Part shown: piece after piece, positions 5,437-44,089 of the stretch | How the letters are laid out: the number at the start of each line of letters is the position of its first letter | Position numbering within the stretch: the stretch's first letter is position 1 | Sequence record: MW250785 | Reading direction: 5' to 3' (one strand) | DNA from: Escherichia phage UPEC03 | Length of the DNA: 64,000 nucleotides | Translations under genes and position numbers: made by a program | The notes under the pieces: generated by a model | What the model saw: only the letters and a program-made list of their open reading frames with translations | Databases searched by the model: none | Told to the model about the DNA's origin: nothing

Positions 5437-5667
5437 TTATTTTTTCAGGTTGATTAACCAAGATGGTTGGGTTTCTAAACTAACCGCTTTCCAAGCATAT
5501 GCAACACTATAACCGGAATACGTCTGACATACAACAGCATTTTCATTTAAATATTTCACTTTGTGATTTGCCTCTTGTTCATCCAGGGCAGCACACACGA
5601 TATTCTTTTCATACACCCCGCCGTTTGGCTGGATAATGGTTTCTTCAATCAGATAAACGCTGTTCAT
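5437..5667 (-). CDS. Hypothetical protein (76 aa)
   Basis: ORF coupled (4-nt overlap) to upstream gene. Confidence 0.45.
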   Translation of the reverse strand: MNSVYLIEETIIQPNGGVYEKNIVCAALDEQEANHKVKYLNENAVVCQTYSGYSVAYAWKAVSLETQPSWLINLKK

Positions 5668-5879
5668 GCTAATTCCTTCTCGATTGCTTCGATGATGTGG
5701 AGAACGTAACCGTTCAGTTCTTTTGCTTTATCAGCGGCTTCAACCATACCGTAACGAGGAACTTCTAAAACGTTCGCACCTTCGAGCAGGTTGCTTTCGA
5801 TGTCTACGATTACGTAGCTCTCACCGATTACTGCGCCTTTTCTCCAGTCTTTTACGAACTTCATCATTTTAGCTTTCAT
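5664..5879 (-). CDS. Hypothetical protein (71 aa)
   Basis: Listed ORF starts with GTG inside the upstream hairpin; ATG at 5879 with AAGGA SD is the likely start. Confidence 0.5.
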   Translation of the reverse strand: MKAKMMKFVKDWRKGAVIGESYVIVDIESNLLEGANVLEVPRYGMVEAADKAKELNGYVLHIIEAIEKELA

Positions 5880-5958
5880 GTTCTCGTTCCTTTTGGCTGT
5901 TCCGTTTCGATATGTGTAATATAACAAAGCCCTCACCGAGAGGCAAGGGCTTTTTTGA
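5880..5958 (-). promoter_or_regulatory. Terminator-promoter-leader module (copy 1 of 6)
   Basis: Minus strand reads AAAAAAGCCC-TTGCCT-N17-TATATTA-CACATATCGAAAC: hairpin with embedded -35-like TTGCNN, extended -10-like TGTTATATT, conserved leader. Confidence 0.45.
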
Positions 5959-5959
5959 T

Positions 5960-11273: not shown

Positions 11274-11542
11274 ACCGCCTCCATTTTACCAATGACTTCT
11301 TCGTATGTCACAGGGTTAGGTTCATAGCCGTTAGCGCCTATTGTATCGCCTACTCTGTTTCCTACTAAAGAAGCAACCGCAACTTTCTTGCCGTCTTTCC
11401 ACGCAGTGAAATGCAGATTATCCGCAACATACGGGAAGGTTTCGTGATTGTTCACCGCGTCGATGCAGTCCATAACGGTATCAGACGCGCAGATCAGATT
11501 ACCAGGTTCATAATCAACCAAACATTCAACAGTGTAAATCAT
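11270..11542 (-). CDS. Hypothetical protein (90 aa)
   Basis: ATG preceded by GAGGA and an upstream hairpin (11553-11575). Confidence 0.45.
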   Translation of the reverse strand: MIYTVECLVDYEPGNLICASDTVMDCIDAVNNHETFPYVADNLHFTAWKDGKKVAVASLVGNRVGDTIGANGYEPNPVTYEEVIGKMEAV

Positions 11543-11584
11543 AATAATTTCCTCACGAAAAAGCCCCTTTCGGGGCTTGATTAA

Positions 11585-11863
11585 TCAGTGTCCGAACACA
11601 CCACGAATAGACTCTGCGAACGCGTACAGTTCAGGGTTTTTCGCTTTCACTGTTTCGATTTGTTCCAGGATGTAATCTGGTTTGTATTTCGCACCGAACC
11701 AGCAGTAAGAGAAAGAACGATCCCACATGAACACGTTGTAGTATTCACCGTTACGCACTTCAACCATCACGTAACCTGGATTAGAACCCAGCGGGTAATC
11801 TTTCAGTAGATTAAATTTCGCACCAGCGCCAGTACATCCGTTAAACAGGTCATTAAAAGTCAT
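11585..11863 (-). CDS. Hypothetical protein (92 aa)
   Basis: ORF with ATG start. Confidence 0.45.
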   Translation of the reverse strand: MTFNDLFNGCTGAGAKFNLLKDYPLGSNPGYVMVEVRNGEYYNVFMWDRSFSYCWFGAKYKPDYILEQIETVKAKNPELYAFAESIRGVFGH

Positions 11864-11916
11864 GGTATGTTCCTTTTCAGTTTCGTTTCGGTAAAGCTAA
11901 TGTATCACTATCCTGG

Positions 11917-12453
11917 TCAGTATGCAATGTTTAATTTTGCAAATTTACCAAAATGTTTTATCGCTTCCCGATCGTATGCTTTTGCAGCCTCGTATTCGTC
12001 ACGATAGGAACCGATATGTTTAACCTTGCCGTCAATCTTTATCTGTGCAATGTAACGTATTCCAGTAGGTTGATCACGTACACATACACCCTTGAATCGA
12101 CTGGTTGCTACTCTTCGTTTAGTCCGGTTCTGACAGTTTCGGGATTGATCCGCTTCACGCAAGTTATCAATCCCGTCGCCAGCCTCAACACCATTTTTAT
12201 GATCAATCACATCAGGCAGTTTTCCGGTTGCAACGTAGTAGATGATTCGATGACGTAGATATCCTTTGCTTTTGAAATAAACGCGGGTATATCCTCCTTT
12301 AATCTTCGAACCTACTTCCTTTCCGATCAAGTCAGAACGTTTGTGTGACGTTCGTATAATTGTCCCCGTTTGTATATCAACAGAAACAGTTTTAAGGAAT
12401 TCGTCAATTCCTTTCTGTTCTTCTTCGATTGTTCTTAGTCCGTTGTGTGACAT
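11917..12453 (-). CDS. HNH endonuclease with C-terminal AP2-like DNA-binding domain (homing-endonuclease-like)
   Basis: HNH-type motif ...VIDHKNGVEAGDGIDNLREA...; AP2-like FKGVCVRDQPTGIRYIAQIKIDGKVKHIGSYRDEYEAAKAYD; paralog at 26069-26593; overlaps Dcm stop by 19 nt. Confidence 0.75.
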   Translation of the reverse strand: MSHNGLRTIEEEQKGIDEFLKTVSVDIQTGTIIRTSHKRSDLIGKEVGSKIKGGYTRVYFKSKGYLRHRIIYYVATGKLPDVIDHKNGVEAGDGIDNLREADQSRNCQNRTKRRVATSRFKGVCVRDQPTGIRYIAQIKIDGKVKHIGSYRDEYEAAKAYDREAIKHFGKFAKLNIAY

Positions 12454-13358
12454 AACACCTTCTTGATTTGTTTTGCTATAGCCTCGATTACTGGTATTGA
12501 AACAGAATTACCTGCTTGTTTATACGCTTGCATCTTGCTTTTGTTGATAATAAACGAATCTGGGAAACCCTGCAAACGAAAACACTCACGGGGAGTAAGT
12601 CTTCGGGGGTTCTTTCCTTCCTGCAATACCAGACATTGAACACCATCTTTATAGTAATTTGCAGTGATAGTCCCAGTGTGCGTAGAATCGCTTGTGACGG
12701 CCTGATAACCGAAACCCTTACCGTTTGCCTTATTTCGTTCCTTACGCTCTCTAAAGCCCTTCCATGCGTTATCTGACAGGGTGAACGAATCATCAGCATC
12801 TTCGAGGATGTCGCCTACGCGTGTAGGGGTACGCGGGGGAACCGGAAACGAAAAGAATACATCATCCAGGAAGCAGACAATAAACACGCGTTCCCGTCTT
12901 TGGGGTAGTCCGAAATCCTTTGTGTTCAGGCGTTGATAGAATACGTTATATCCTTCGGCCTCCAGAAGCCCGTAAATCGTTTTAAACGTCTTCCCCTTGT
13001 CATGGGTTAGCAGTTCAGGCACGTTCTCAAAGAACAACACACGGGGCTTTTTAGCGCGTATAATGCGGAGGATTTCGAAGAACACCGTACCGCGTACATC
13101 ATCAAAGCCCAGTTTCAATCCGGCTTTACTGAACGCCTGACACGGGAACCCCGCGAGCAGGATATCATGATCAGGTACTTTGTTTTCATCAATGGCGAAT
13201 AGATCACCCTGTAGGTTATCATCGCCCCAGTTTTCGATATATGTTTGCTGTGCGAACTTGTCGATTTCAGACGTTAAAAGGCATTCGACACCGCCGAACG
13301 CCTTATCAAATCCTAATCGAACCCCGCCCACACCAGCGCAGAGGTCAATTATTTTCAT
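12435..13358 (-). CDS. DNA (cytosine-5)-methyltransferase, Dcm-type
   Basis: Motif I DLCAGVGG, motif IV GFPCQAFS, ENV motif FFENVPEL; 307 aa. Confidence 0.85.
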   Translation of the reverse strand: MKIIDLCAGVGGVRLGFDKAFGGVECLLTSEIDKFAQQTYIENWGDDNLQGDLFAIDENKVPDHDILLAGFPCQAFSKAGLKLGFDDVRGTVFFEILRIIRAKKPRVLFFENVPELLTHDKGKTFKTIYGLLEAEGYNVFYQRLNTKDFGLPQRRERVFIVCFLDDVFFSFPVPPRTPTRVGDILEDADDSFTLSDNAWKGFRERKERNKANGKGFGYQAVTSDSTHTGTITANYYKDGVQCLVLQEGKNPRRLTPRECFRLQGFPDSFIINKSKMQAYKQAGNSVSIPVIEAIAKQIKKVLCHTTD

Positions 13359-13857: not shown

Positions 13858-14855
13858 TTGTAATACCCCACAACATGATCGCGGTATACGCGTTCGATGA
13901 AATCGTTCCAGAATTCGCGGTCAACTTCTTTCGGATATGTTGAAATCGCTGCAAGCCGTTCGACTTCGCCCATGACTTCTTCCAGCTTTTCCTGTACGGT
14001 TGCGAACGGTACGCCGCCAGCTTTAACCAGTTTCAGGAATGCGCTATCAGGCAGAGGATAAACGATATCACCATCTTTGTAAATCTGGATCAACTGCATA
14101 CCACCGCGCAACGCGTGACTTAAAGCCTTCCAGTCGATGCCGTTGTTGGCTTCTGCTTGTCGTGCGCGTTCTCCGTATTCATCCCAGAGTTTGTACACTG
14201 ACTTACGCATTTCATCGGCTTTGATCGTGAACTGGAATTTACGCCCCAGCACTTCATAGAAGTCCTGACAACCAGATTTCATTGTCGTGTCGGTAACGAA
14301 TCGGCAGAACTCGTTTGTAGGGAAACGATTCTTGATGTCAGACACTTTCACTTCACGCGTATAGCGTTTCATATCTGGTGTGAATTCCTGAATACCACCG
14401 ATCGTTTCGGTTTCTTTCAGTACATCGACAACTTCGCGCAGTGCAGCCAGTCGGGAACCTTTCACACCATATTTTGCGGCTTGCTTGCGAACATAACCGA
14501 ACAGGCCAGTTAGTTCAGTGGTGTAAAAACGCCAGCGGTTAGCGCGGATATACTGCCAGATTTCAGAGTTAGCGATCAGCTTGTCATCCGAAGCGTGAAG
14601 CATATCGAGCGCTACGGTATCACCATCACACGCAAGGCTGATAAACTTAGTCAGACTATACAACTGACGATCAACGTCGTCTACGGTGTTTTTAGAGCTT
14701 TTATCGCCCGTGCTGGTGTCGATAGACTTCTTCGCAGTGCCTAACAGGATTTCGCGAGGATGAGGGAGATAGATCCCTTTGTAGTCTTTATCGCTTGTTG
14801 GTGTTTCCAGTCCGTAAAGATGGGATCCAAAAATCATTTCAGTAATCATTTTCAT
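13854..14855 (-). CDS. Pol-beta superfamily nucleotidyltransferase-domain protein, function unknown
   Basis: N-terminal GSHLYGLETPTSDKDYKGIY matches the G[GS]x9-13Dx[DE] NTase signature; ATG at 14855 (listed 14870 start is TTG) overlaps HNH stop as TAATG. Confidence 0.6.
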   Translation of the reverse strand: MKMITEMIFGSHLYGLETPTSDKDYKGIYLPHPREILLGTAKKSIDTSTGDKSSKNTVDDVDRQLYSLTKFISLACDGDTVALDMLHASDDKLIANSEIWQYIRANRWRFYTTELTGLFGYVRKQAAKYGVKGSRLAALREVVDVLKETETIGGIQEFTPDMKRYTREVKVSDIKNRFPTNEFCRFVTDTTMKSGCQDFYEVLGRKFQFTIKADEMRKSVYKLWDEYGERARQAEANNGIDWKALSHALRGGMQLIQIYKDGDIVYPLPDSAFLKLVKAGGVPFATVQEKLEEVMGEVERLAAISTYPKEVDREFWNDFIERVYRDHVVGYYK

Positions 14856-15613
14856 TATACAAATCTCCAATAAAACCCTTTATGAGTTTTTCTTTTACCG
14901 TTACAGCATGAACTTACATGCCCTTTGTTATACCCCATTTCAACGGCTTCCACAATACCACCATTTAAAATAGTTTCTCTTTCTGTTTTGATACATTTCA
15001 TAATCAAAGGTTTTATCAATTCCGTCTTCTTTTGTGAAATATTAGCTAATGCAATTACATTTCTGATATCAGATTCACTCATTAAATCAGAAATCTTCTT
15101 TCTTAACCATACATAGCCTTGACTTTTGGCAAGTTTGCCGGAGCAACATTCATGAATATGACTAGGGTTAAATCCACGCAATTTCATTTCTTGCCGACCG
15201 CCTAATATGATAATCTCGTCTCCTGTTTCAAGGTTGAATCCGACAACTGGAATTATTTGCCGTTCCGACATTTTCTTTCTCGCTTCTTTCGTGAATATTG
15301 TAAGAGATTTTAATTTTCTCGCGTCGCTCATTTGCGAAGATGTCGTTTTGTATTTCTTAGTATTATGAGACATACGGAAAAAAGCATATCTCATTTTATC
15401 ACCAGCATACTTAGCAAGTAGATGATGAGCAAGATAATGCTCTTTATATGTTAAATATACTAAATTTTCGGGTTCATCAGTACCACCTAATGACTTAGCA
15501 ACGATATGGTGTATATCATAACCGCGCTTTCTATACTTTTTCGAGTAACCTTTAGGTATATCTCTTCTTTTTGCCAATGTAATTAGTTGGTCGTAAATAC
15601 GCTTATAGTTCAT
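14855..15613 (-). CDS. HNH homing endonuclease-like protein
   Basis: GYDIHHIVAKSLGGTDEPENLVYLTYKEHYLAHH HNH motif; ATG at 15613 with AAAGGAGAG SD (listed start is GTG). Confidence 0.75.
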   Translation of the reverse strand: MNYKRIYDQLITLAKRRDIPKGYSKKYRKRGYDIHHIVAKSLGGTDEPENLVYLTYKEHYLAHHLLAKYAGDKMRYAFFRMSHNTKKYKTTSSQMSDARKLKSLTIFTKEARKKMSERQIIPVVGFNLETGDEIIILGGRQEMKLRGFNPSHIHECCSGKLAKSQGYVWLRKKISDLMSESDIRNVIALANISQKKTELIKPLIMKCIKTERETILNGGIVEAVEMGYNKGHVSSCCNGKRKTHKGFYWRFV

Positions 15614-15743
15614 ACACTCTCCTTTAGGCGTATTTATCACTTAAAATCCGAACACGGTTTCCATAATCATTTTCATCAGAATTCAACCTTTAATGTTTTT
15701 GCGATCCCGCGCAATTCCGCGGTAGTAATAACAGGGATCATAA

Positions 15744-16016
15744 TCATTTCCTCACAGTTTCAAATTCTTCGTCAGATTTCCAGTACACGTTAAAGTTACG
15801 GCAATCGTGGTCGGAAGTCAACGTATATTTTTCTTTTGTTTTCTCGTCGGTGATCACCATCGTTTCATTCTCGATCGAGTCCACACCATAGACGAATACT
15901 TTATCACCGCGTTTATTCAGGAACGCTTCACCTGTTTCAACCAACTGCCAGCAGTTGACGGGTAAACCACCCGCACAGATCGGACGGTTTACGAGGCAGT
16001 AAGGACGTTTAATCAT
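15744..16016 (-). CDS. Hypothetical protein (90 aa)
   Basis: ORF with ATG start. Confidence 0.4.
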   Translation of the reverse strand: MIKRPYCLVNRPICAGGLPVNCWQLVETGEAFLNKRGDKVFVYGVDSIENETMVITDEKTKEKYTLTSDHDCRNFNVYWKSDEEFETVRK

Positions 16017-16207
16017 TTAAATTCTTCCATTGCATAGGAAGTAAGATCTTTGAAATACCTTGCGGTGTTGCCTTCTGGGTTGTTTGTAATCTCCATCAGG
16101 ATAACAGCACCATCAACTCCTGCTTTCTTAGCCATGAATGAAATGGCTTCGGTAGCAATAATCGTTGCTTTCATAACATCAGCTTTAGAAACGTTGATCG
16201 TATTCAT
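16013..16207 (-). CDS. Hypothetical protein (64 aa)
   Basis: First gene downstream of module copy 2. Confidence 0.4.
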   Translation of the reverse strand: MNTINVSKADVMKATIIATEAISFMAKKAGVDGAVILMEITNNPEGNTARYFKDLTSYAMEEFK

Positions 16208-16285
16208 TTTTCTTCCTTTTCATTATTCATGCGGTATGTGTATATAATACAAAAGCCCTCACGCGAACGCAAGGGCTTTTTTAAT
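16208..16285 (-). promoter_or_regulatory. Terminator-promoter-leader module (copy 2 of 6)
   Basis: Minus strand AAAAAAGCCC-TTGCGT-N17-TATTAT after NatV stop; hairpin 16251-16282. Confidence 0.45.
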
Positions 16286-16291
16286 CTTTTA

Positions 16292-22565: not shown

Positions 22566-22970
22566 TTAAGCCCCTACGCACACAAAGCGATCTTCAATTG
22601 CATCATTAACACATTCGTAAATGCTAACGTCATTCGGGACGTGCTTACGAATACCCACTTTCACGATATCCATGATCTCTTTGTTGCTGCCCCACACGTT
22701 CAGGTTGAAGTAAACACCGCCGCTATGAATTGTGCTGTTGCCAACATCAAGATACGTATCTTGACTTTCGCAGATAAACAGTTTGCGTTTTTCTTCTCCG
22801 TATGCGAAGTAGATACTGAACGATTCCATACGATGACGATCGACCGTGATGGTTTCCACTTTAACCTTTGGATCTTTGTTCAGTTCATCTAACACACCCT
22901 GAATGATGTGCAGCATGTTCGGCTTGATGATAGTCGGATGACTGGTGATAACTCGATGTGATGTGCTCAT
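22566..22970 (-). CDS. Hypothetical protein (134 aa)
   Basis: First gene after module copy 3. Confidence 0.5.
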   Translation of the reverse strand: MSTSHRVITSHPTIIKPNMLHIIQGVLDELNKDPKVKVETITVDRHRMESFSIYFAYGEEKRKLFICESQDTYLDVGNSTIHSGGVYFNLNVWGSNKEIMDIVKVGIRKHVPNDVSIYECVNDAIEDRFVCVGA

Positions 22971-23037
22971 AATTTAATCCTCAATAGTTGGTACACACAT
23001 AATAAAAAAGCCCCTGCGAAAATGCAAGGGCTTTTTA
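22971..23037 (-). promoter_or_regulatory. Terminator-promoter module (copy 3 of 6, variant -10)
   Basis: Minus strand AAAAAGCCC-TTGCAT-N17-TATTAT; hairpin 23005-23036. Confidence 0.4.
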
Positions 23038-24480: not shown

Positions 24481-24675
24481 TCACAAAAATAGTTTCACTT
24501 CGCTACCGCATTTCGGGCAGACGATATGTTTTTTCACGATGTAATCAGCAGCACGGAAGAAACCGTTGTAGAACACTTCGTTTTTCTTCTGTACATCAGA
24601 CAATTCATACTCTAACCCACTTTTGCAGTTAGCGCAAACGGTAATTAGCTTTGGACTAACAATAACGCTGATCAT
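24481..24675 (-). CDS. Small zinc-ribbon protein (64 aa)
   Basis: CANCKSG...CPKCGSE; ATG at 24675 with GAGGT SD just after a hairpin. Confidence 0.4.
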   Translation of the reverse strand: MISVIVSPKLITVCANCKSGLEYELSDVQKKNEVFYNGFFRAADYIVKKHIVCPKCGSEVKLFL

Positions 24676-24677
24676 GT

Positions 24678-24706
24678 ATACCTCACGAAAAAGGGGGCCG
24701 AAGCCC
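24678..24706 (-). terminator. GC-rich hairpin after PhoH
   Basis: AAGGGGGC-CGAA-GCCCCCTT, T-run on minus strand. Confidence 0.45.
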
Positions 24707-24712
24707 CCTTGA

Positions 24713-31749: not shown

Positions 31750-32006
31750 TTTACACTCCGTTTCAGTTTACGTTCGTCAGCCAGTTCTTTTTTGTACGTT
31801 TTGATGTACTTCCCGTTAAGGATGCGAAGCTGTTGGAAAACTTTGTTGCACAAAGCACGTTTTGCTTTGTATTCCTGCGTATTACGGATTGATTCGACCG
31901 TCATACCCATTTCGTTTTTAGGGTACGCGCTCAACTCCCTGCCGATCTCTCTGTGCCAGTTGCTTAACTGATCACGCTGTGCTTTGTACTCTTCAAAAGT
32001 TAACAT
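31746..32006 (-). CDS. Hypothetical basic protein (86 aa)
   Basis: Coupled small ORF. Confidence 0.4.
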   Translation of the reverse strand: MLTFEEYKAQRDQLSNWHREIGRELSAYPKNEMGMTVESIRNTQEYKAKRALCNKVFQQLRILNGKYIKTYKKELADERKLKRSVK

Positions 32007-32072
32007 AACAATCTCCGGTTTCGTTTCTATGTGTGTAAGGTATCATTACCCTACACACAACGCAAGCGATTT

Positions 32073-32273
32073 TTATTTTCCGTAAAGAACACAATATTCT
32101 TTATATTTTTCACGGGCTTTTTCTTCATTACTAAAGGAAACTCCCATTCCAAAATCAGAACCTTCGAACGTAACATCCCACGATTCATACCCATCTTCCG
32201 AATAATAGGAAAGTGTTATTTTACGATCTTCAAGAACAAGTTGTTCAACAACAATATCAATTTCAGTAGTCAT
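32073..32273 (-). CDS. Hypothetical protein (66 aa)
   Basis: ATG overlaps upstream small ORF stop (ATGA). Confidence 0.4.
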   Translation of the reverse strand: MTTEIDIVVEQLVLEDRKITLSYYSEDGYESWDVTFEGSDFGMGVSFSNEEKAREKYKEYCVLYGK

Positions 32274-32416
32274 AGTTCATTTCCATAATCTTTTGCTGCA
32301 TCTTCGGGGGTTGCGTCCAGTCGGTAAAGCTCAACGGCTAACGGACTGGGTTTGATTTCGCGGTTCAGGATCTCACTGATACCGCGAAGGAATTCGATAT
32401 AAGGACGGAATCTCAT
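32270..32416 (-). CDS. Small ORF (48 aa, not in ORF track)
   Basis: MRFRPYIEFLRGISEILNREIK...; ATGA overlaps at both ends link it into the coupled chain. Confidence 0.35.
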   Translation of the reverse strand: MRFRPYIEFLRGISEILNREIKPSPLAVELYRLDATPEDAAKDYGNEL

Positions 32417-32664
32417 TTGATACGTACCGCGTTAAAAGCCTGGTTGCGCAGTTCATAAGCCTGTTCAAGCTGTTCTGTAGTGAACAGAGGACTATCGGTG
32501 TTAGTGGTGAAACTGCAAATGGTTTTGTTGTCGGCGTTAACTTCTTCAACAACGATTTCATAACCCCAGATCCCGCTGTACTCACATTTCACGTTACGGT
32601 ACTTGATGTAAACCGCAGCAACATCTTCTTTTTTGTAGTTCCGGCTTTTGTAGATGATTTCCAT
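32413..32664 (-). CDS. Hypothetical protein (84 aa)
   Basis: ATG at 32664 with AAGGAGGA SD; the listed ORF extends upstream through the conserved leader. Confidence 0.5.
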   Translation of the reverse strand: MEIIYKSRNYKKEDVAAVYIKYRNVKCEYSGIWGYEIVVEEVNADNKTICSFTTNTDSPLFTTEQLEQAYELRNQAFNAVRIK

Positions 32665-32730
32665 GATATCCTCCTTCGTTTCGATGTGTGTAATATAACA
32701 AAACCCCTCACCATAGACAAGGGGTTTCTT
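32665..32730 (-). promoter_or_regulatory. Terminator-promoter-leader module (copy 4 of 6)
   Basis: Minus strand AAACCCC-TTGTCT-N17-TATATTA-CACACATCGAAACGAAGGAGG-ATG. Confidence 0.5.
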
Positions 32731-32746
32731 TAACAAAAAGTGCTAT

Positions 32747-33738: not shown

Positions 33739-33944
33739 AATATATTCCTCACAGGTTTAAAGCGTTCTTTTCCGGTTCCATTACATGAACTGCATTTCGG
33801 AGATCGGTCGCTATCATATCGCCCAGATCCATTACATGCAACACATTTCCGTAATTTCCAGCCATACACGAACCGCATATAATCGGTTCGTGCGGCCTTG
33901 CGTTCGTGGAAGTTCATACTTTGTTGTAAACCTGAACAACCCAC
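33726..33944 (-). CDS. Small DnaJ-type zinc-finger protein (CxxCxGxG x2)
   Basis: CVACNGSG and CSSCNGTG repeats. Confidence 0.45.
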   Translation of the reverse strand: MGCSGLQQSMNFHERKAARTDYMRFVYGWKLRKCVACNGSGRYDSDRSPKCSSCNGTGKERFKPVRNILCNM

Positions 33945-34117
33945 ATTTCGATGTTCGGTGAGTAAGTAACGTTCACCATCGGCATAGTGCGGTATTTGTA
34001 TGCGGCTTTGTACGCATCGAGTTCAGTCGGAACACAGAAAGAGAAACCGTTGTCATAACGTTCTGCGTTAGAAACTTCACAACCAACTACAGAAGCAATG
34101 TTTTTGTTCATGTTCAT
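33914..34117 (-). CDS. Hypothetical protein (67 aa)
   Basis: ATG at 34117 downstream of module copy 5; the listed ORF extends through the leader. Confidence 0.45.
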   Translation of the reverse strand: MNMNKNIASVVGCEVSNAERYDNGFSFCVPTELDAYKAAYKYRTMPMVNVTYSPNIEMWVVQVYNKV

Positions 34118-34119
34118 GA

Positions 34120-34195
34120 TGTTTTCCTTTCTCTGTTTCGTTTCGATGTGTGTAATATAACAAAGCCCCTGCATTGCTGCAAGGGCTTTTTTCAC
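34120..34195 (-). promoter_or_regulatory. Terminator-promoter-leader module (copy 5 of 6)
   Basis: Minus strand AAAAAAGCCC-TTGCAG-N17-TATATTA-CACACATCGAAAC. Confidence 0.5.
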
Positions 34196-36938: not shown

Positions 36939-37224
36939 AATGTTCTTCGTAATCCTCGCATTCTGGGAGATAGGTTTCGCAGAACATACACAGCGTGAAG
37001 AATGTAGGCTGGCGAATTCCGATATTATCGGGTAAGTACATCCAGAACGTGTTAGCAAACACGATGAACGTTTTCAGGTTTTCAACGGTTACGGTACTGA
37101 CACCATCATAACCGGATTGAGCAATTGCGCGTTCCAGGGGAACAGGGTATTGCTCGCAGTAATCGACGTAATGATCGCTTGTTACAAGCGCATTAGCCGC
37201 TTTTACGAGATCGGTAATTTTCAT
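36928..37224 (-). CDS. Hypothetical protein (98 aa)
   Basis: ORF with ATG start. Confidence 0.4.
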   Translation of the reverse strand: MKITDLVKAANALVTSDHYVDYCEQYPVPLERAIAQSGYDGVSTVTVENLKTFIVFANTFWMYLPDNIGIRQPTFFTLCMFCETYLPECEDYEEHYGE

Positions 37225-37487
37225 TCAATATATCCCCAACGAATTTTTACGTTATCTTCTGACGCCGGACTTGTAGGAGTTGGGTATGGATAACTTTGCG
37301 CTTCCCACAGATAAACAATGGCGTGTTTTGTCAATTCTTCGATAACTTCATCGAAAGTACCGACACTGGTTTGTAAAGGCAACGAGAAAGGTTTATCGTT
37401 GGTTTCTACTTGAGCGATTGGCCCATCTACCAAGATAACACGAACCGTTGTGTGCTCAGACATATGAGCATAGATTTTGTTTTTCAT
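37221..37487 (-). CDS. Hypothetical protein (88 aa)
   Basis: Coupled ORF. Confidence 0.4.
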   Translation of the reverse strand: MKNKIYAHMSEHTTVRVILVDGPIAQVETNDKPFSLPLQTSVGTFDEVIEELTKHAIVYLWEAQSYPYPTPTSPASEDNVKIRWGYIE

Positions 37488-38062: not shown

Positions 38063-38203
38063 TTAGTAATCCCCTACAGGTTGAGAAGATGCAACGCTCA
38101 GTATACGGAAAGAGCATTCATTCCATTTGCAATAAGTTTTCGCACAGTGAACAGTGCCTTTCATTACAAACCCGTTTGAGAACACCAGCCAGTAAAGTTT
38201 CAT
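38063..38203 (-). CDS. Small hypothetical protein (46 aa)
   Basis: ATG at 38203 with AAAGGAGG SD downstream of module copy 6. Confidence 0.35.
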   Translation of the reverse strand: MKLYWLVFSNGFVMKGTVHCAKTYCKWNECSFRILSVASSQPVGDY

Positions 38204-38268
38204 GATTGCCTCCTTTGTTTCGACACCCCTAATATAACAAAAGCCCCTGCACGAATGCAAGGGCTTTT
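38204..38268 (-). promoter_or_regulatory. Terminator-promoter-leader module (copy 6 of 6)
   Basis: Minus strand AAAAAAGCCC-TTGCAT-N17/18-TATATTA-GGGGTGTCGAAAC. Confidence 0.45.
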
Positions 38269-38269
38269 T

Positions 38270-38827
38270 TCAAATATTTTTCAACATGTGTAGTTGAGGC
38301 GGACAATCTTTTGAAGCAATCAGGCGATCCAGGCGTGACATAACGCGTCTGTAGCCGTCATACTCGAACTTGATTTTAGGTGCGATGTAATTAACATGGA
38401 TCGCGTTTCGCGTGTTCAGGCTCAATGTATACTCAGGGATAACGGTTCGGAATCGTACAGCAATCACTGGCTTTTCGTGAGCAATAGAATCATCCATGTT
38501 TTCAAACATCTGGACGGTGAACGCACAGGCAAACACTTTGCCATTGATCCGGCGATATGCAATGACTTCCTGCATACCTTCGTTTTTCGCTTTCACCGCG
38601 TAATGCAGAACGTTACACGAATAATGTTTAGCGAGACTATTAAGAATTTCACTGTAGATCGCAAAGTCTTTTTTGACTGACGCGGAACGATCCAGGAATC
38701 GGTCTGCGATGTGATCTGTAGTCATTGAAACCTTTGTCACATACCAATCACTTAACGCTTTACTGAAATTTTGGTTAACTTCTCTGCGTAAGTTATTGAT
38801 AACATACATCAATCGTGCTCTGTTCAT
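38270..38827 (-). CDS. Hypothetical protein (185 aa)
   Basis: ORF with ATG start. Confidence 0.5.
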   Translation of the reverse strand: MNRARLMYVINNLRREVNQNFSKALSDWYVTKVSMTTDHIADRFLDRSASVKKDFAIYSEILNSLAKHYSCNVLHYAVKAKNEGMQEVIAYRRINGKVFACAFTVQMFENMDDSIAHEKPVIAVRFRTVIPEYTLSLNTRNAIHVNYIAPKIKFEYDGYRRVMSRLDRLIASKDCPPQLHMLKNI

Positions 38828-42045: not shown

Positions 42046-42078
42046 AAAGCCCCTTCCTTTCGGTTGGGGCTTTTTTGT
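42046..42078. terminator. Intrinsic terminator between convergent genes
   Basis: AAAGCCCC-TTCCTTTCGGTT-GGGGCTTTTTTGTT. Confidence 0.6.
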
Positions 42079-42932
42079 TAATATCTGTTCCAAACTTTCT
42101 TCGCGCTGTATGGTTTTCCTTTGGACTGGAAAGCCTGTGTAGGCAACCAAACTGCTTTCGCCCAATCTTTTGGGGCGATCTCTGCAAGTGGTGAACGTAG
42201 ATGGGCTGGCAGATAGGCTTTGATCATTTGATCAGCCCCGCGCATTCCCTTCACGTTGTTCCAGTTGATTTTCAGTCTGGTTTTGTTAGAAAGTCGATCT
42301 GTTGATCCGTAGCCACGTTTCAGGAGTTCTTCTAAAAACTCTTGACGTGCTCGCGGTGGCGCATAGTGCAAGTTCAGCCCGTAAAGAACCAAGTTACCCG
42401 CTTTCGAACGTCCTGAACCCAGGAAAATGATCAGCGGGAACCGATCCCAGTATGGCAGGGTGTCTTTGTATTTCGCATCGTAGATGAACGTATACAAACG
42501 ACCCGTTGCTGGTTTCGCAACCCTGTGCGTCTTAATGCTGGTTTTGATGAAATCACCAAACCAATCGGTCGAATCTTTCTGACGTTTCGCAGCGGTTACA
42601 CCAACAGTCATTTTCTTCAAACTGTTGCGGAAATCGTTTACGATATCAACCGCGTGTTTTTTGCGATAATCATTACGTTTGCGTCGGGCTTCGGTTTCTG
42701 CTTTACGGCGTTCGATTTCATCATCAATCTGCTGCTTATAGCGGTGCATAGACTTTGTGAACGTTGCGTATGCAATCCCGTTTTCGTCCGCGAACTTTTT
42801 GGCTGTCATGCCTTTTAATTTTGCGCGTCGGAATTTGATACCAAGTTCAACCCATTCACCCAGCTTTCGCTTCGGTGGTGGTTTTGGCTTGTCTTCTTCT
42901 GCGATGATCTCGAACTCAAAAATAAAACTCAT
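42078..42932 (-). CDS. DNA end protector protein (gp2-like)
   Basis: 284-aa basic protein; strong SD GGAGGG; minus-strand AATAAATA late-promoter-like motif about 20 nt upstream (42951-42957); synteny 4-2-3-1. Confidence 0.45.
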   Translation of the reverse strand: MSFIFEFEIIAEEDKPKPPPKRKLGEWVELGIKFRRAKLKGMTAKKFADENGIAYATFTKSMHRYKQQIDDEIERRKAETEARRKRNDYRKKHAVDIVNDFRNSLKKMTVGVTAAKRQKDSTDWFGDFIKTSIKTHRVAKPATGRLYTFIYDAKYKDTLPYWDRFPLIIFLGSGRSKAGNLVLYGLNLHYAPPRARQEFLEELLKRGYGSTDRLSNKTRLKINWNNVKGMRGADQMIKAYLPAHLRSPLAEIAPKDWAKAVWLPTQAFQSKGKPYSAKKVWNRY

Positions 42933-42953
42933 AATTCCCTCCGTTTAGGGTAT

Positions 42954-43421
42954 TTATTGCCCTTTCCATCCGAACACACGTTTCAATGTGTCCTCTGTGA
43001 TGATCTTGAACTCCCAGCCCTTTTGTTTTGCTGCTGCATTCGCGGCTTTCCATTTGTCAATGTTTACTGCATACGTATACAGTGCATCAACGAATTTCTT
43101 TTTGTTGTGAACGTTGTTGTTCGCTGGCTTAGGTGGGGGCAACGTTTCTTTCATCGGTTTGACTTCCCAAAGGTAGGTCACTCCATTATCCATTTCGACA
43201 TAGAAATCCATGAAGTAACGCCGTCGCTTTCCGTCTGCGTTGCTGAAATAAGGGATCACAACGCATTCTGAATTCCACCTCTTTACGTGGGGATTTCGGT
43301 CTAACCAATTCATTATATATTTTTCCCATGAAGAACGATATGTTATTTTTCTGGGATCTCCTTTATACTTTTCTATCTGTTGTGGCATAAAGGAACCTTT
43401 GTATGTCTGTCTTCCAGTCAT
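42954..43421 (-). CDS. Head completion protein (gp4-like)
   Basis: 155 aa (T4 gp4 about 150 aa); position between gp2-like gene and the 53/5 block. Confidence 0.45.
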   Translation of the reverse strand: MTGRQTYKGSFMPQQIEKYKGDPRKITYRSSWEKYIMNWLDRNPHVKRWNSECVVIPYFSNADGKRRRYFMDFYVEMDNGVTYLWEVKPMKETLPPPKPANNNVHNKKKFVDALYTYAVNIDKWKAANAAAKQKGWEFKIITEDTLKRVFGWKGQ

Positions 43422-44089
43422 TATTTCACCTTACAATTATCAAAATGCCACCTATACATTGCTCTGGGGTTTCCTTCTTTTCCGCAATGTGGACATATTA
43501 CAGGTTTCGTGTTTTTAGCTGAGTCGCGCATCTTTTGTTTTGCTTCTTCGCTAATAATTCTTCCTGTTAACGAAGCGCTAAGGTTATCTCTATGCTCTTT
43601 AGAACGGTTTGACGCAACTCTACTCATTTTTTGTTTGAATTCATCACTTCTCTTTATTCCGGTCATCCCTTCGGAAATACTTTTCTTGTGTGCTTCTGAT
43701 AGCGGTTTCCCTTTTATTGATTCTCGTCTTTTTCGTTTCCAATCATCGCTACGTGGTGGGTGTTTAGTCCCTATAGAATTGATTCGATTTTGTTCGGCTA
43801 CTTTCTCTCTGATCCATCCGTAAGTTCGAGAAGTCATTCTTCCAGAATGAAATCTTGATGCCATTGACATCATCTTACACGCGTATATAAGTTTTCCGTT
43901 TGTTGGGTACATTTTGACGAGTAGTTGATGGGCGAGATAGTGTTCTTCGGCAGTGAGACAAACGATATTTTCGGGTTCGTCCATTCCTCCCATACACCGA
44001 GGGATGATGTGATGGTTTTCTGAATACCCGCTTATAGTTCTTGATTGTGCTCTTTTGATAAGAAGTTCATAGTGTTTGCGGTAATTCAT
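43421..44089 (-). CDS. HNH homing endonuclease-like protein with basic repeats and C-terminal zinc ribbon
   Basis: HHIIPRCMGGMDEPENIVCLTAEEHYLAHQ; C-terminal CPHCG...C; AT-rich; sits between gp4-like and gp53. Confidence 0.75.
   Translation of the reverse strand: MNYRKHYELLIKRAQSRTISGYSENHHIIPRCMGGMDEPENIVCLTAEEHYLAHQLLVKMYPTNGKLIYACKMMSMASRFHSGRMTSRTYGWIREKVAEQNRINSIGTKHPPRSDDWKRKRRESIKGKPLSEAHKKSISEGMTGIKRSDEFKQKMSRVASNRSKEHRDNLSASLTGRIISEEAKQKMRDSAKNTKPVICPHCGKEGNPRAMYRWHFDNCKVK

Follow-up and report, generated by a model that had tools for sequence, protein, structure and literature searches.

The six repeated elements that we studied in Escherichia phage UPEC03 are very probably intergenic cassettes of the PeSL ('promoter-early stem-loop') type, carried by a T4-like Pseudotevenvirus and combining a host-type early promoter with a terminator hairpin. 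They lie on the minus strand of a stretch of 64,000 nucleotides (record MW250785), here called the window, which represents about one third of the phage genome. An initial annotation had described them as a reused terminator-promoter-leader cassette, each copy preceding one small gene, and this description appears to fit all the features that we computed from the sequence. The design itself is already known as PeSLs in T4-like phages; the present modules are a lineage-specific member of the class, the parts of which have been annotated piecemeal in relatives.

Architecture of the modules

Reading of each site showed that all six intergenic modules are present where they had been placed. They are listed below, the focal copy (m32665) first; all are on the minus strand.

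32662..32734 (-), module m32665: hairpin 32728-32700 (GAAACCCCTTGTCTATGGTGAGGGGTTTT), -13.1 kcal/mol; -35 TTGTCT 32720-32715, 17-nt spacer, TGT followed by -10 TATATT 32697-32692; predicted +1 near 32685, 21-nt leader ATCGAAACGAAGGAGGATATC, ATG 32664-32662, 83-aa ORF 32413-32664
5877..5959 (-), module m5880: hairpin 5953-5926, -19.2 kcal/mol; -35 TTGCCT 5946-5941, 17-nt spacer, TGT followed by TATATT 5923-5918; predicted +1 near 5911, 32-nt leader, ATG 5879, 71-aa ORF 5664-5879
16205..16286 (-), module m16208: hairpin 16280-16251, -18.9 kcal/mol; -35 TTGCGT 16272-16267, 17-nt spacer, -10 TATTAT 16249-16244 without TGn; predicted +1 near 16237, a different leader, ATG 16207, 64-aa ORF 16013-16207
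22968..23037 (-), module m22971: hairpin 23036-23005 with a 6-nt loop, -20.0 kcal/mol; -35 TTGCAT 23027-23022, 17-nt spacer, -10 TATTAT 23004-22999 without TG; predicted +1 near 22992, leader ACCAACTATTGAGGATTAAATT, ATG 22970, 134-aa ORF 22566-22970
34115..34195 (-), module m34120: hairpin 34189-34162, -20.4 kcal/mol; -35 TTGCAG 34182-34177, 17-nt spacer, TGT followed by TATATT 34159-34154; predicted +1 near 34147, 30-nt leader ATCGAAACGAAACAGAGAAAGGAAAACATC, ATG 34117, 67-aa ORF 33914-34117
38201..38272 (-), module m38204: hairpin 38268-38239, -20.2 kcal/mol; -35 TTGCAT 38260-38255, 18-nt spacer, TGT followed by TATATT 38236-38231; predicted +1 near 38224, leader GTCGAAACAAAGGAGGCAATC, ATG 38203, 46-aa ORF 38063-38203

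All six copies show the same order of elements within 65-85 bp, i.e. a GC-rich hairpin, a U-rich tract, the -10, a leader of 21-32 nt, an SD and an ATG. Each module takes up the whole intergenic gap, with 1-18 nt between the upstream stop codon and the hairpin. The stem is made of an A-tract, GCCC (or CCCC) and TTGNN, paired with the 3' arm and the T-tract, and the folding energies range from -13.1 to -20.4 kcal/mol (z = -2.6 to -5.8). As initially proposed, the -35 lies inside the hairpin, TTGNNT being found at the top of the 5' arm and in the loop in 6/6 copies; the 3' arm forms the promoter spacer and the T-tract continues into the -10, which is either TATATT or TATTAT. The uniform gap of 17 nt between -35 and -10 was found in five copies and measured 18 nt in the one at 38204, while the extended -10 (TGTTATATTA), also ascribed to the whole set, was present in four of the six, the copies at 16208 and 22971 having TATTAT preceded by TTG and TTT, respectively. 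Most of the -35 hexamers (TTGCCT, TTGCGT, TTGCAT, TTGTCT, TTGCAG and TTGCAT) agree with TTGACA at TTG only (3/6 positions). The modules also contain an A5-6 tract at about -45 to -40; an A-rich UP-like region was described in T4-like early promoters by Nolan et al. 2006 (PMC1524935). Every copy has a purine at its predicted +1. The U-tract is broken up (UUUGUUAUAUU; as RNA, UUU(U)GUUAUAUU), and termination may therefore be partial and of uncertain efficiency. All three copies in the 30-40 kb range passed a terminator scan, and the other copies share their layout; one of the three passed a simple promoter-consensus scan over the range scanned.

The leaders are A/C-rich, 21-32 nt long, and end in an SD and an ATG. 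The sequence CACACATCGAAAC, which had been taken as a leader common to all copies, is limited to three of them plus a remnant: a 23-nt block comprising the -10 and the leader (TGTTATATTACACACATCGAAAC) is found in three copies, once with a mismatch, copy 38204 retains only TCGAAAC, and 16208 and 22971 carry other leaders. Similarly, the peptide CYITHIETK, reported in three ORFs, is encoded by two over-extended ones (32413..32736 and 33914..34195), the third (5664..5936) crossing the module in another frame. ORFs 33914-34195, 32413-32736 and 5664-5936 are all extended too far, from GTG or TTG starts through the module, and their true start is likely the ATG that follows the SD. GenBank CDS GAP161_165 (L001 7293-7574) uses such an over-extended start, which hides promoter and terminator inside the 'gene'.

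Specificity of the modules and further relatives in the window

The pattern AAAGCCCTTGC-N6-12-GGGCTTT had five matches in the window, compared with 0.00 expected in shuffled sequences; in the remaining copy (32665) the stem is compensated and reads AAACCCCTTGT...GGGGTTT. The motif search that the initial annotation had called for, performed over the window with an nhmmer profile of the six modules, recovered exactly those six at E<=4e-14, and no module was detected by the profile in the window beyond 38.3 kb. When the window was scanned for TTG-N3-N17/18-TAnnnT within a hairpin, the same six were the only hits with dG<=-13 kcal/mol, the remaining ones being at about -11 kcal/mol, which is the level of shuffled sequences. 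Scans of the entire window against Rfam (4227 families) and for tRNAs gave no match. Parts of the leader were not enriched in the window beyond the promoters themselves: TCGAAAC occurred 22 times versus 14.6 expected (5/100 shuffles reached 22), and CGAAACGAAAC five times versus 2.7 expected.

One further nhmmer match, the hairpin at 42046-42073, was rejected as a module and is a plain bidirectional terminator without promoter. Its stem, which resembles the module stem, reads AAAGCCCC...GGGGCTTT with T-runs on either side, on both strands, and it adjoins the stop codon of the minus-strand gene for a gp2 homologue (ORF 42078-42932). A second type of intergenic repeat, found at about 11540-11580 (-) and 24670-24710 (-), consists of a simple GC hairpin (GCCCC-GAAA/TTCG-GGGGC) and, after it, TTTTTCGTGAGG and an ATG. 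It has no promoter and resembles a terminator or attenuator joined to an SD.

We also found two relatives that had been missed earlier, a seventh variant and a promoter devoid of hairpin.

32004..32074 (-), seventh variant module (nhmmer profile match, E=7e-4): -35 TTGCGT 32065-32060, 17-nt spacer, weak -10 TACCTT 32042-32037; leader ACACACATAGAAACGAAAC, ATG 32006
11861..11927 (-), hairpin-less relative: -35 TTGCAT 11927-11922, 17-nt spacer, TGA followed by TACATT 11904-11899; leader with CGAAACGAAAC, ATG 11863, 92-aa ORF 11585-11863

In the seventh variant (32004-32074), the usual hairpin is gone and another one of 13 bp, without U-tract, is present at 32059-32030 (-18.1 kcal/mol); in it, TGTGTGT of the spacer pairs with the conserved discriminator ACACACA, so covering the -10. 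This hairpin is either a different PeSL subclass or one that was re-invented after loss of the usual one. Together with ORF 32073-32273, the variant module forms a 270-bp unit that is missing from phages BHU20 and CYPEBC003. The relative at 11861-11927 showed no RNA structure (z=+0.86).

Conservation of hairpin and promoter across variants

To assess constraint on the modules, we used 35 copies from eight genomes, which represent 26 distinct variants. RNAalifold run on a MAFFT alignment recovered only six pairs, because aligning on the promoter displaces the hairpin axis from one variant to the next, and it was replaced by a table of pairs taken from the minimum free energy structure of each sequence and anchored on TTG. 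All 26 variants had folding energies of -13 to -23 kcal/mol. Four stem positions had changed on both sides with pairing kept (A-T 20 / G-C 4; G-C 19 / C-G 7; C-G 21 / A-T 3 / U-G 1; and A-U 10 / C-G 7 / G-C 3). TTG was invariant (26/26), its pairing partners alternating between Watson-Crick and wobble, and some variants had the near-consensus -35 TTGACT. The invariance of TTG could partly reflect the common ancestry of the copies.

The sense hairpins (-18.9 to -20.4 kcal/mol) exceeded the antisense ones (-14.7 to -16.6 kcal/mol) in stability by about 4-5 kcal/mol, because G.U becomes C.A in the latter. The many G.U pairs thus favour the sense-strand RNA, which argues for a terminator acting on RNA made in the direction of the genes rather than for a DNA palindrome. 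In the plain terminators near 11567 and 24710, the T-tract leads straight to the SD and ATG, and both TTG and TATATT are missing; the promoter signals of the modules therefore do not arise as a by-product of termination signals. Taken together, the covariation and the wobble asymmetry indicate that one 45-bp sequence is under a dual selection, for the RNA hairpin and for the promoter.

Proposed mode of action

According to the model that we propose, RNA coming from the upstream gene would fold into the GC-rich hairpin followed by the U-rich tract, and read-through would be terminated or attenuated. The hairpin DNA would double as a sigma-70-type promoter, in which the A-tract at the base of the stem occupies the position expected of an UP element, the -35 (TTGNNT) would be supplied by the 5' arm and loop, and the 3' arm would act as a 17-nt spacer free of sequence requirements; the DNA of the U-tract would lead into TGnTATATT or TATTAT. 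Unmodified host RNA polymerase, hence the term 'early', would start at a purine about 7 nt past the -10 and produce a leader that is short, unstructured and rich in A/C, with an SD ahead of a small ORFan. Since the hairpin lies upstream of +1, it would be absent from the module's own transcript and form only in RNA from the upstream gene, and each gene block would therefore be transcriptionally insulated and self-driven. It is also conceivable, though speculative, that the overlap of the termination point with the -10 allows RNA polymerase, once released, to start again immediately on the following cassette.

Early rather than middle timing seems the better reading because of the sigma-70-type signals and of the reported absence of motA in RB43. 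In this phage, a Nolan-type early promoter was confirmed by northern blot for rki (PMC3486835).

Genomic setting and distribution

A 6-kb slice of the window shared 96.6% identity with Cronobacter phage GAP161 and 89% with coliphage RB16. It matched 175 records, all of them from T4-like phages that infect Klebsiella, Enterobacter, Cronobacter, Citrobacter or Escherichia and belong to Pseudotevenvirus and neighbouring genera. The window thus belongs to a Pseudotevenvirus of the RB16/RB43/GAP161 group. Its module copies are confined to 5.9-38.3 kb, a minus-strand early region rich in small hypothetical genes; the module-free part (39-64 kb) encodes gp57A, gp1, gp3, gp2, gp4 and baseplate, tail and neck proteins. 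The genes downstream of the modules are ORFans of 46-134 aa, each in a separate PHROG of unknown function, and a Pfam search with them gave no match. The module family was found in 186 phage records, mostly at 5-9 places each among the matches listed. The complete genome of BHU20 contains 11 full copies, none of them beyond 127.5 kb.

Recombination and possible cassette exchange at the modules

The conserved core of 17-45 bp would provide a patch of homology for recombination events that delete, insert or swap gene cassettes. One such event can be read in the window from its sequence, while a general role of the core may be inferred by analogy with the PeSL literature. In GAP161, a hairpin module is followed by a 92-aa frd.1-like gene, a hairpin-less leader copy (TGTTATTGTACACACATCGAAACGAAGGAGG) and the MEIIY gene; in the window, the hairpin module is joined directly to the MEIIY gene, without the frd.1-like gene. 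Module m32665 is a hybrid relative to GAP161, the switch occurring within a common sequence of 17 nt (ACACACATCGAAACGAA). Judged from this comparison of sequences, the focal copy is a recombination product with its crossover in the leader. Six relatives (GAP161, BHU20, CYPEBC003, Miller, KP27 and mtp5) retain the longer arrangement, and the lineage of the window therefore most likely lost the frd.1-like gene. This provides a clean, resolved example of gene loss through recombination within a leader.

Other copies also differ between relatives. An extra gene, of 217 aa in GAP161 and about 200 aa in BHU20, touches the 5' edge of the m5880 hairpin, and the BHU20 orthologue of m5880 is chimeric, with a hairpin loop of the m16208 type. 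Comparison with Slopekvirus mtp5, a less closely related phage, showed that the modules at 16208, 32665 and 34120, with their first gene, are 93-98% identical on a backbone of 72-80% identity, and that homology stops at the hairpins. For m16208, tiles in the downstream gene were 96-98% identical to mtp5, as compared with about 75-83% in the upstream flank. These islands of identity speak for an exchange of cassettes, with a p value of 4e-4 computed on tiles that are not independent. Relative to GAP161, two of seven real junctions touch hairpin modules and four involve homing-endonuclease genes; in this rough count of seven junctions, the excess of breakpoints at modules over other intergenic gaps was not significant. 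We tentatively consider, as a possibility that is less probable than not, that modules with the -35 inside the hairpin, a lineage homogeneous in sequence, are a portable adaptor common to Pseudotevenvirus and Slopekvirus, single-gene cassettes (a module and its first gene) moving between the genera by homologous crossover within the core of 17-45 bp. Such transfers would account for islands of 93-98% identity that end at the hairpins on a backbone of 72-80%.

The replacements at 11912-12457 and 14831-15759 were rejected as module-mediated events, as they correspond to HNH homing-endonuclease genes. The HNH homing-endonuclease-like ORFs at 11917-12453 (-) and 14855-15640 (-) (Pfam HNH_3, 3e-6; I-HmuI NUMOD-like, 3e-6) both sit in segments replaced relative to GAP161, and the former ends within the spacer of the hairpin-less promoter at 11912. 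A 222-aa ORF at 43421-44089 (-) is probably also a homing endonuclease: it contains an HNH motif (HHIIPRCMGG...EEHYLAH), with weak Pfam hits to HNH and NUMOD3 that are below threshold, and lies within about 700 bp missing from GAP161, between the gp4 and gp53 homologues. This region coincides with a dip in AT skew (-0.257 at 42-44 kb). Conversely, GAP161_185, a Seg-like GIY-YIG homing endonuclease gene of about 680 bp between gp2 and gp4, is missing at 42947-42960 of the window. An 88-aa ORF at 37221-37487 (-), without Pfam match, is not in GAP161; it is inserted at a gene-gene junction with no module nearby.

Alternative interpretations

The modules could be nothing else than Rho-independent, possibly bidirectional, terminators, their likeness to -35 and -10 elements being a by-product of AT-rich sequence that follows a GC hairpin and the downstream genes being expressed by read-through. 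The hairpin and T-rich tail are indeed flagged as terminator-like, the plus strand also reads as a hairpin plus TTTTTT, the record for phage KP27 marks terminators on both strands, and the matches to the -35 are weak. We nevertheless consider this unlikely. Plain terminators without TTG or TATATT, located 15-20 nt from the ATG, exist in the same region, whereas the modules hold a fixed TTG-to-TATWWT geometry of 17/18 nt and a leader of 21-32 nt; TTG is constant while neighbouring stem positions covary; -35, -10 and leader are retained in copies that have no hairpin; and the RB43 homologues were picked up by the early-promoter HMM of Nolan et al. (PMC1524935). If promoters they are, they might still be 'middle' promoters dependent on a phage factor rather than early promoters of host type, as the GenBank note on one KP27 orthologue implies ('putative middle promoter; discovered using MEME'). 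The weak -35 could also suggest dependence on an activator, but an extended -10 makes up for a weak -35 without activator, although the compensating TGn is missing in 2/6 copies. The MotA box has the sequence (a/t)(a/t)(a/t)TGCTTtA, is centred at -30 and lies 11-13 bp ahead of the -10. Such a box is absent from all six copies, which read TGCCT, TGCGT, TGCAT, TGTCT, TGCAG and TGCAT instead of TGCTT and have TGC at -34 to -32 rather than at -31 to -29, 3 bp too far upstream. Furthermore, RB43 was reported to lack motA and middle-promoter motifs (PMC1524935; PMC3486835), and another KP27 orthologue of the module family is labelled 'similar to consensus promoter'. Because the MotA box is absent, we reject a middle-promoter function, which appears quite improbable.

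It would be more surprising still if the repeats acted primarily at the DNA level, as cruciforms or protein-binding palindromes, as recombination sites for a dedicated enzyme or as miniature mobile elements, with incidental transcription signals. Such a function would agree with the indels and chimeric copies observed at modules, and Arbiol et al. raised the speculative idea of a recombinase that targets the stem-loop (PMC2839356). However, owing to the frequent G.U wobbles, a good structure is obtained only as sense-strand RNA, and no terminal inverted repeats, target duplications or associated transposase were found with the modules. Furthermore, the single resolved crossover lies in the leader, not in the hairpin, and in 17 nt of identity, as ordinary homologous recombination predicts. 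The interpretation of the modules as PeSL-type cassettes, with early promoter and terminator in the same DNA, is thus the one that we compare below with known systems.

Comparison with known systems

PeSLs were defined by Arbiol et al. 2010 in phages RB49 and phi1, where promoter and terminator activities were strong in reporters and where copies recombine through crossovers that were located between -10 and ATG (PMC2839356). As with the present modules, these PeSLs place a sigma-70-type promoter and a stem-loop terminator between a stop codon and an SD/ATG, occur in many copies among the ORFans of plastic early regions, and delete or insert genes through crossovers between copies (PMC2839356). 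We do not claim any sequence similarity between the two sets. The RB49 PeSLs have a near-perfect TTGACA-N17-TATAAT, as opposed to the weak -35 and often extended -10 found here, and stems that are usually GGGG...CCCC, located between -35 and -10 or over the -10 (PMC2839356), whereas the present copies all (6/6) have one layout, the hairpin being built from A-tract, -35 and spacer. A stem-loop over the -35 is one of the five subclasses of Arbiol et al. (PMC2839356). Promoter and terminator activity and mini-circles are experimental findings in RB49/phi1 (PMC2839356), while promoter and terminator of the present modules are predicted from the sequence.

Comeau et al. 2014 widened the class to PST/T4 and nt-1/KVP40 (PMC4122927). 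The nt-1 consensus, TTGYVH-N17-TAWWAT with A3-4G3-loop-C3T3-4 stems (PMC4122927), is close to that of the modules, TTGYNT-N17-TATWWT with an A5-6GCCC...GGGGCT3-4 stem, though nt-1/KVP40 belong to another phage subgroup and infect another host. The PeSLs of nt-1/KVP40/PST/T4 likewise include 'half' or degraded copies and are associated with indels (PMC4122927). The legends to the PST figures, applied to nt-1, put the stem-loops just upstream of the promoter, in contrast to the -35 inside the stem observed here, and nt-1 has in addition PmSLs, i.e. MotA-box variants (PMC4122927), none of which was seen among the modules. In T4, according to the account of Repoila et al. 1994 given in PMC2839356, repeated early-promoter/stem-loop elements flank the small, highly variable genes of the internal-protein (IP) loci and were proposed, like PeSLs, to mediate shuffling. 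As described there, the T4 elements differ from the modules in having T4-type early promoters and weaker, AT-rich stems, and in being limited to two small loci (PMC2839356).

For the RB43 group, the 2010 paper mentions just 'PeSL-like sequences' near gene 43 (PMC2839356), and we found in the searchable literature no description of PeSLs in the RB43/Pseudotevenvirus group and no usable transcriptome, TSS, 5'/3'-end, timing or reporter data for Pseudotevenvirus or Slopekvirus. While the modules reveal no new mechanism, they bring the large RB43/RB16/KP15 group into the PeSL concept; its phages infect Klebsiella, Enterobacter, Cronobacter and E. coli, and many of them are candidates for phage therapy. 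In practice, their recognition flags mis-annotated starts that run through modules and offers compact natural insulator-promoter parts.

Homologous counterparts are found in records of relatives. The supplements of Nolan et al. 2006 list Pe:11463 and Pe:12201 as early promoters of RB43 that enclose TransTerm terminators (PMC1524935), and reading of both sites showed that they belong to the same sequence family as the modules. The KP27 orthologue of m34120 is annotated as overlapping terminator and promoter, and the GenBank record of Miller (KM236237) carries 'terminator' plus RBS on orthologues. In RB43, KP27 and Miller, these are listed as separate predicted features, never as a composite repeated cassette or in connection with gene shuffling, and the 'middle' label of the KP27 promoter carries no supporting evidence. 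RB43 Pe:12201 with its terminator at 12170-12191 (PMC1524935) and the KP27 (HQ918180) promoter 93265-93293, which overlaps terminator 93276-93297, are true homologues of the modules, and the RB43, KP27 and Miller homologues have the same hairpin, -35, -10 and leader sequences.
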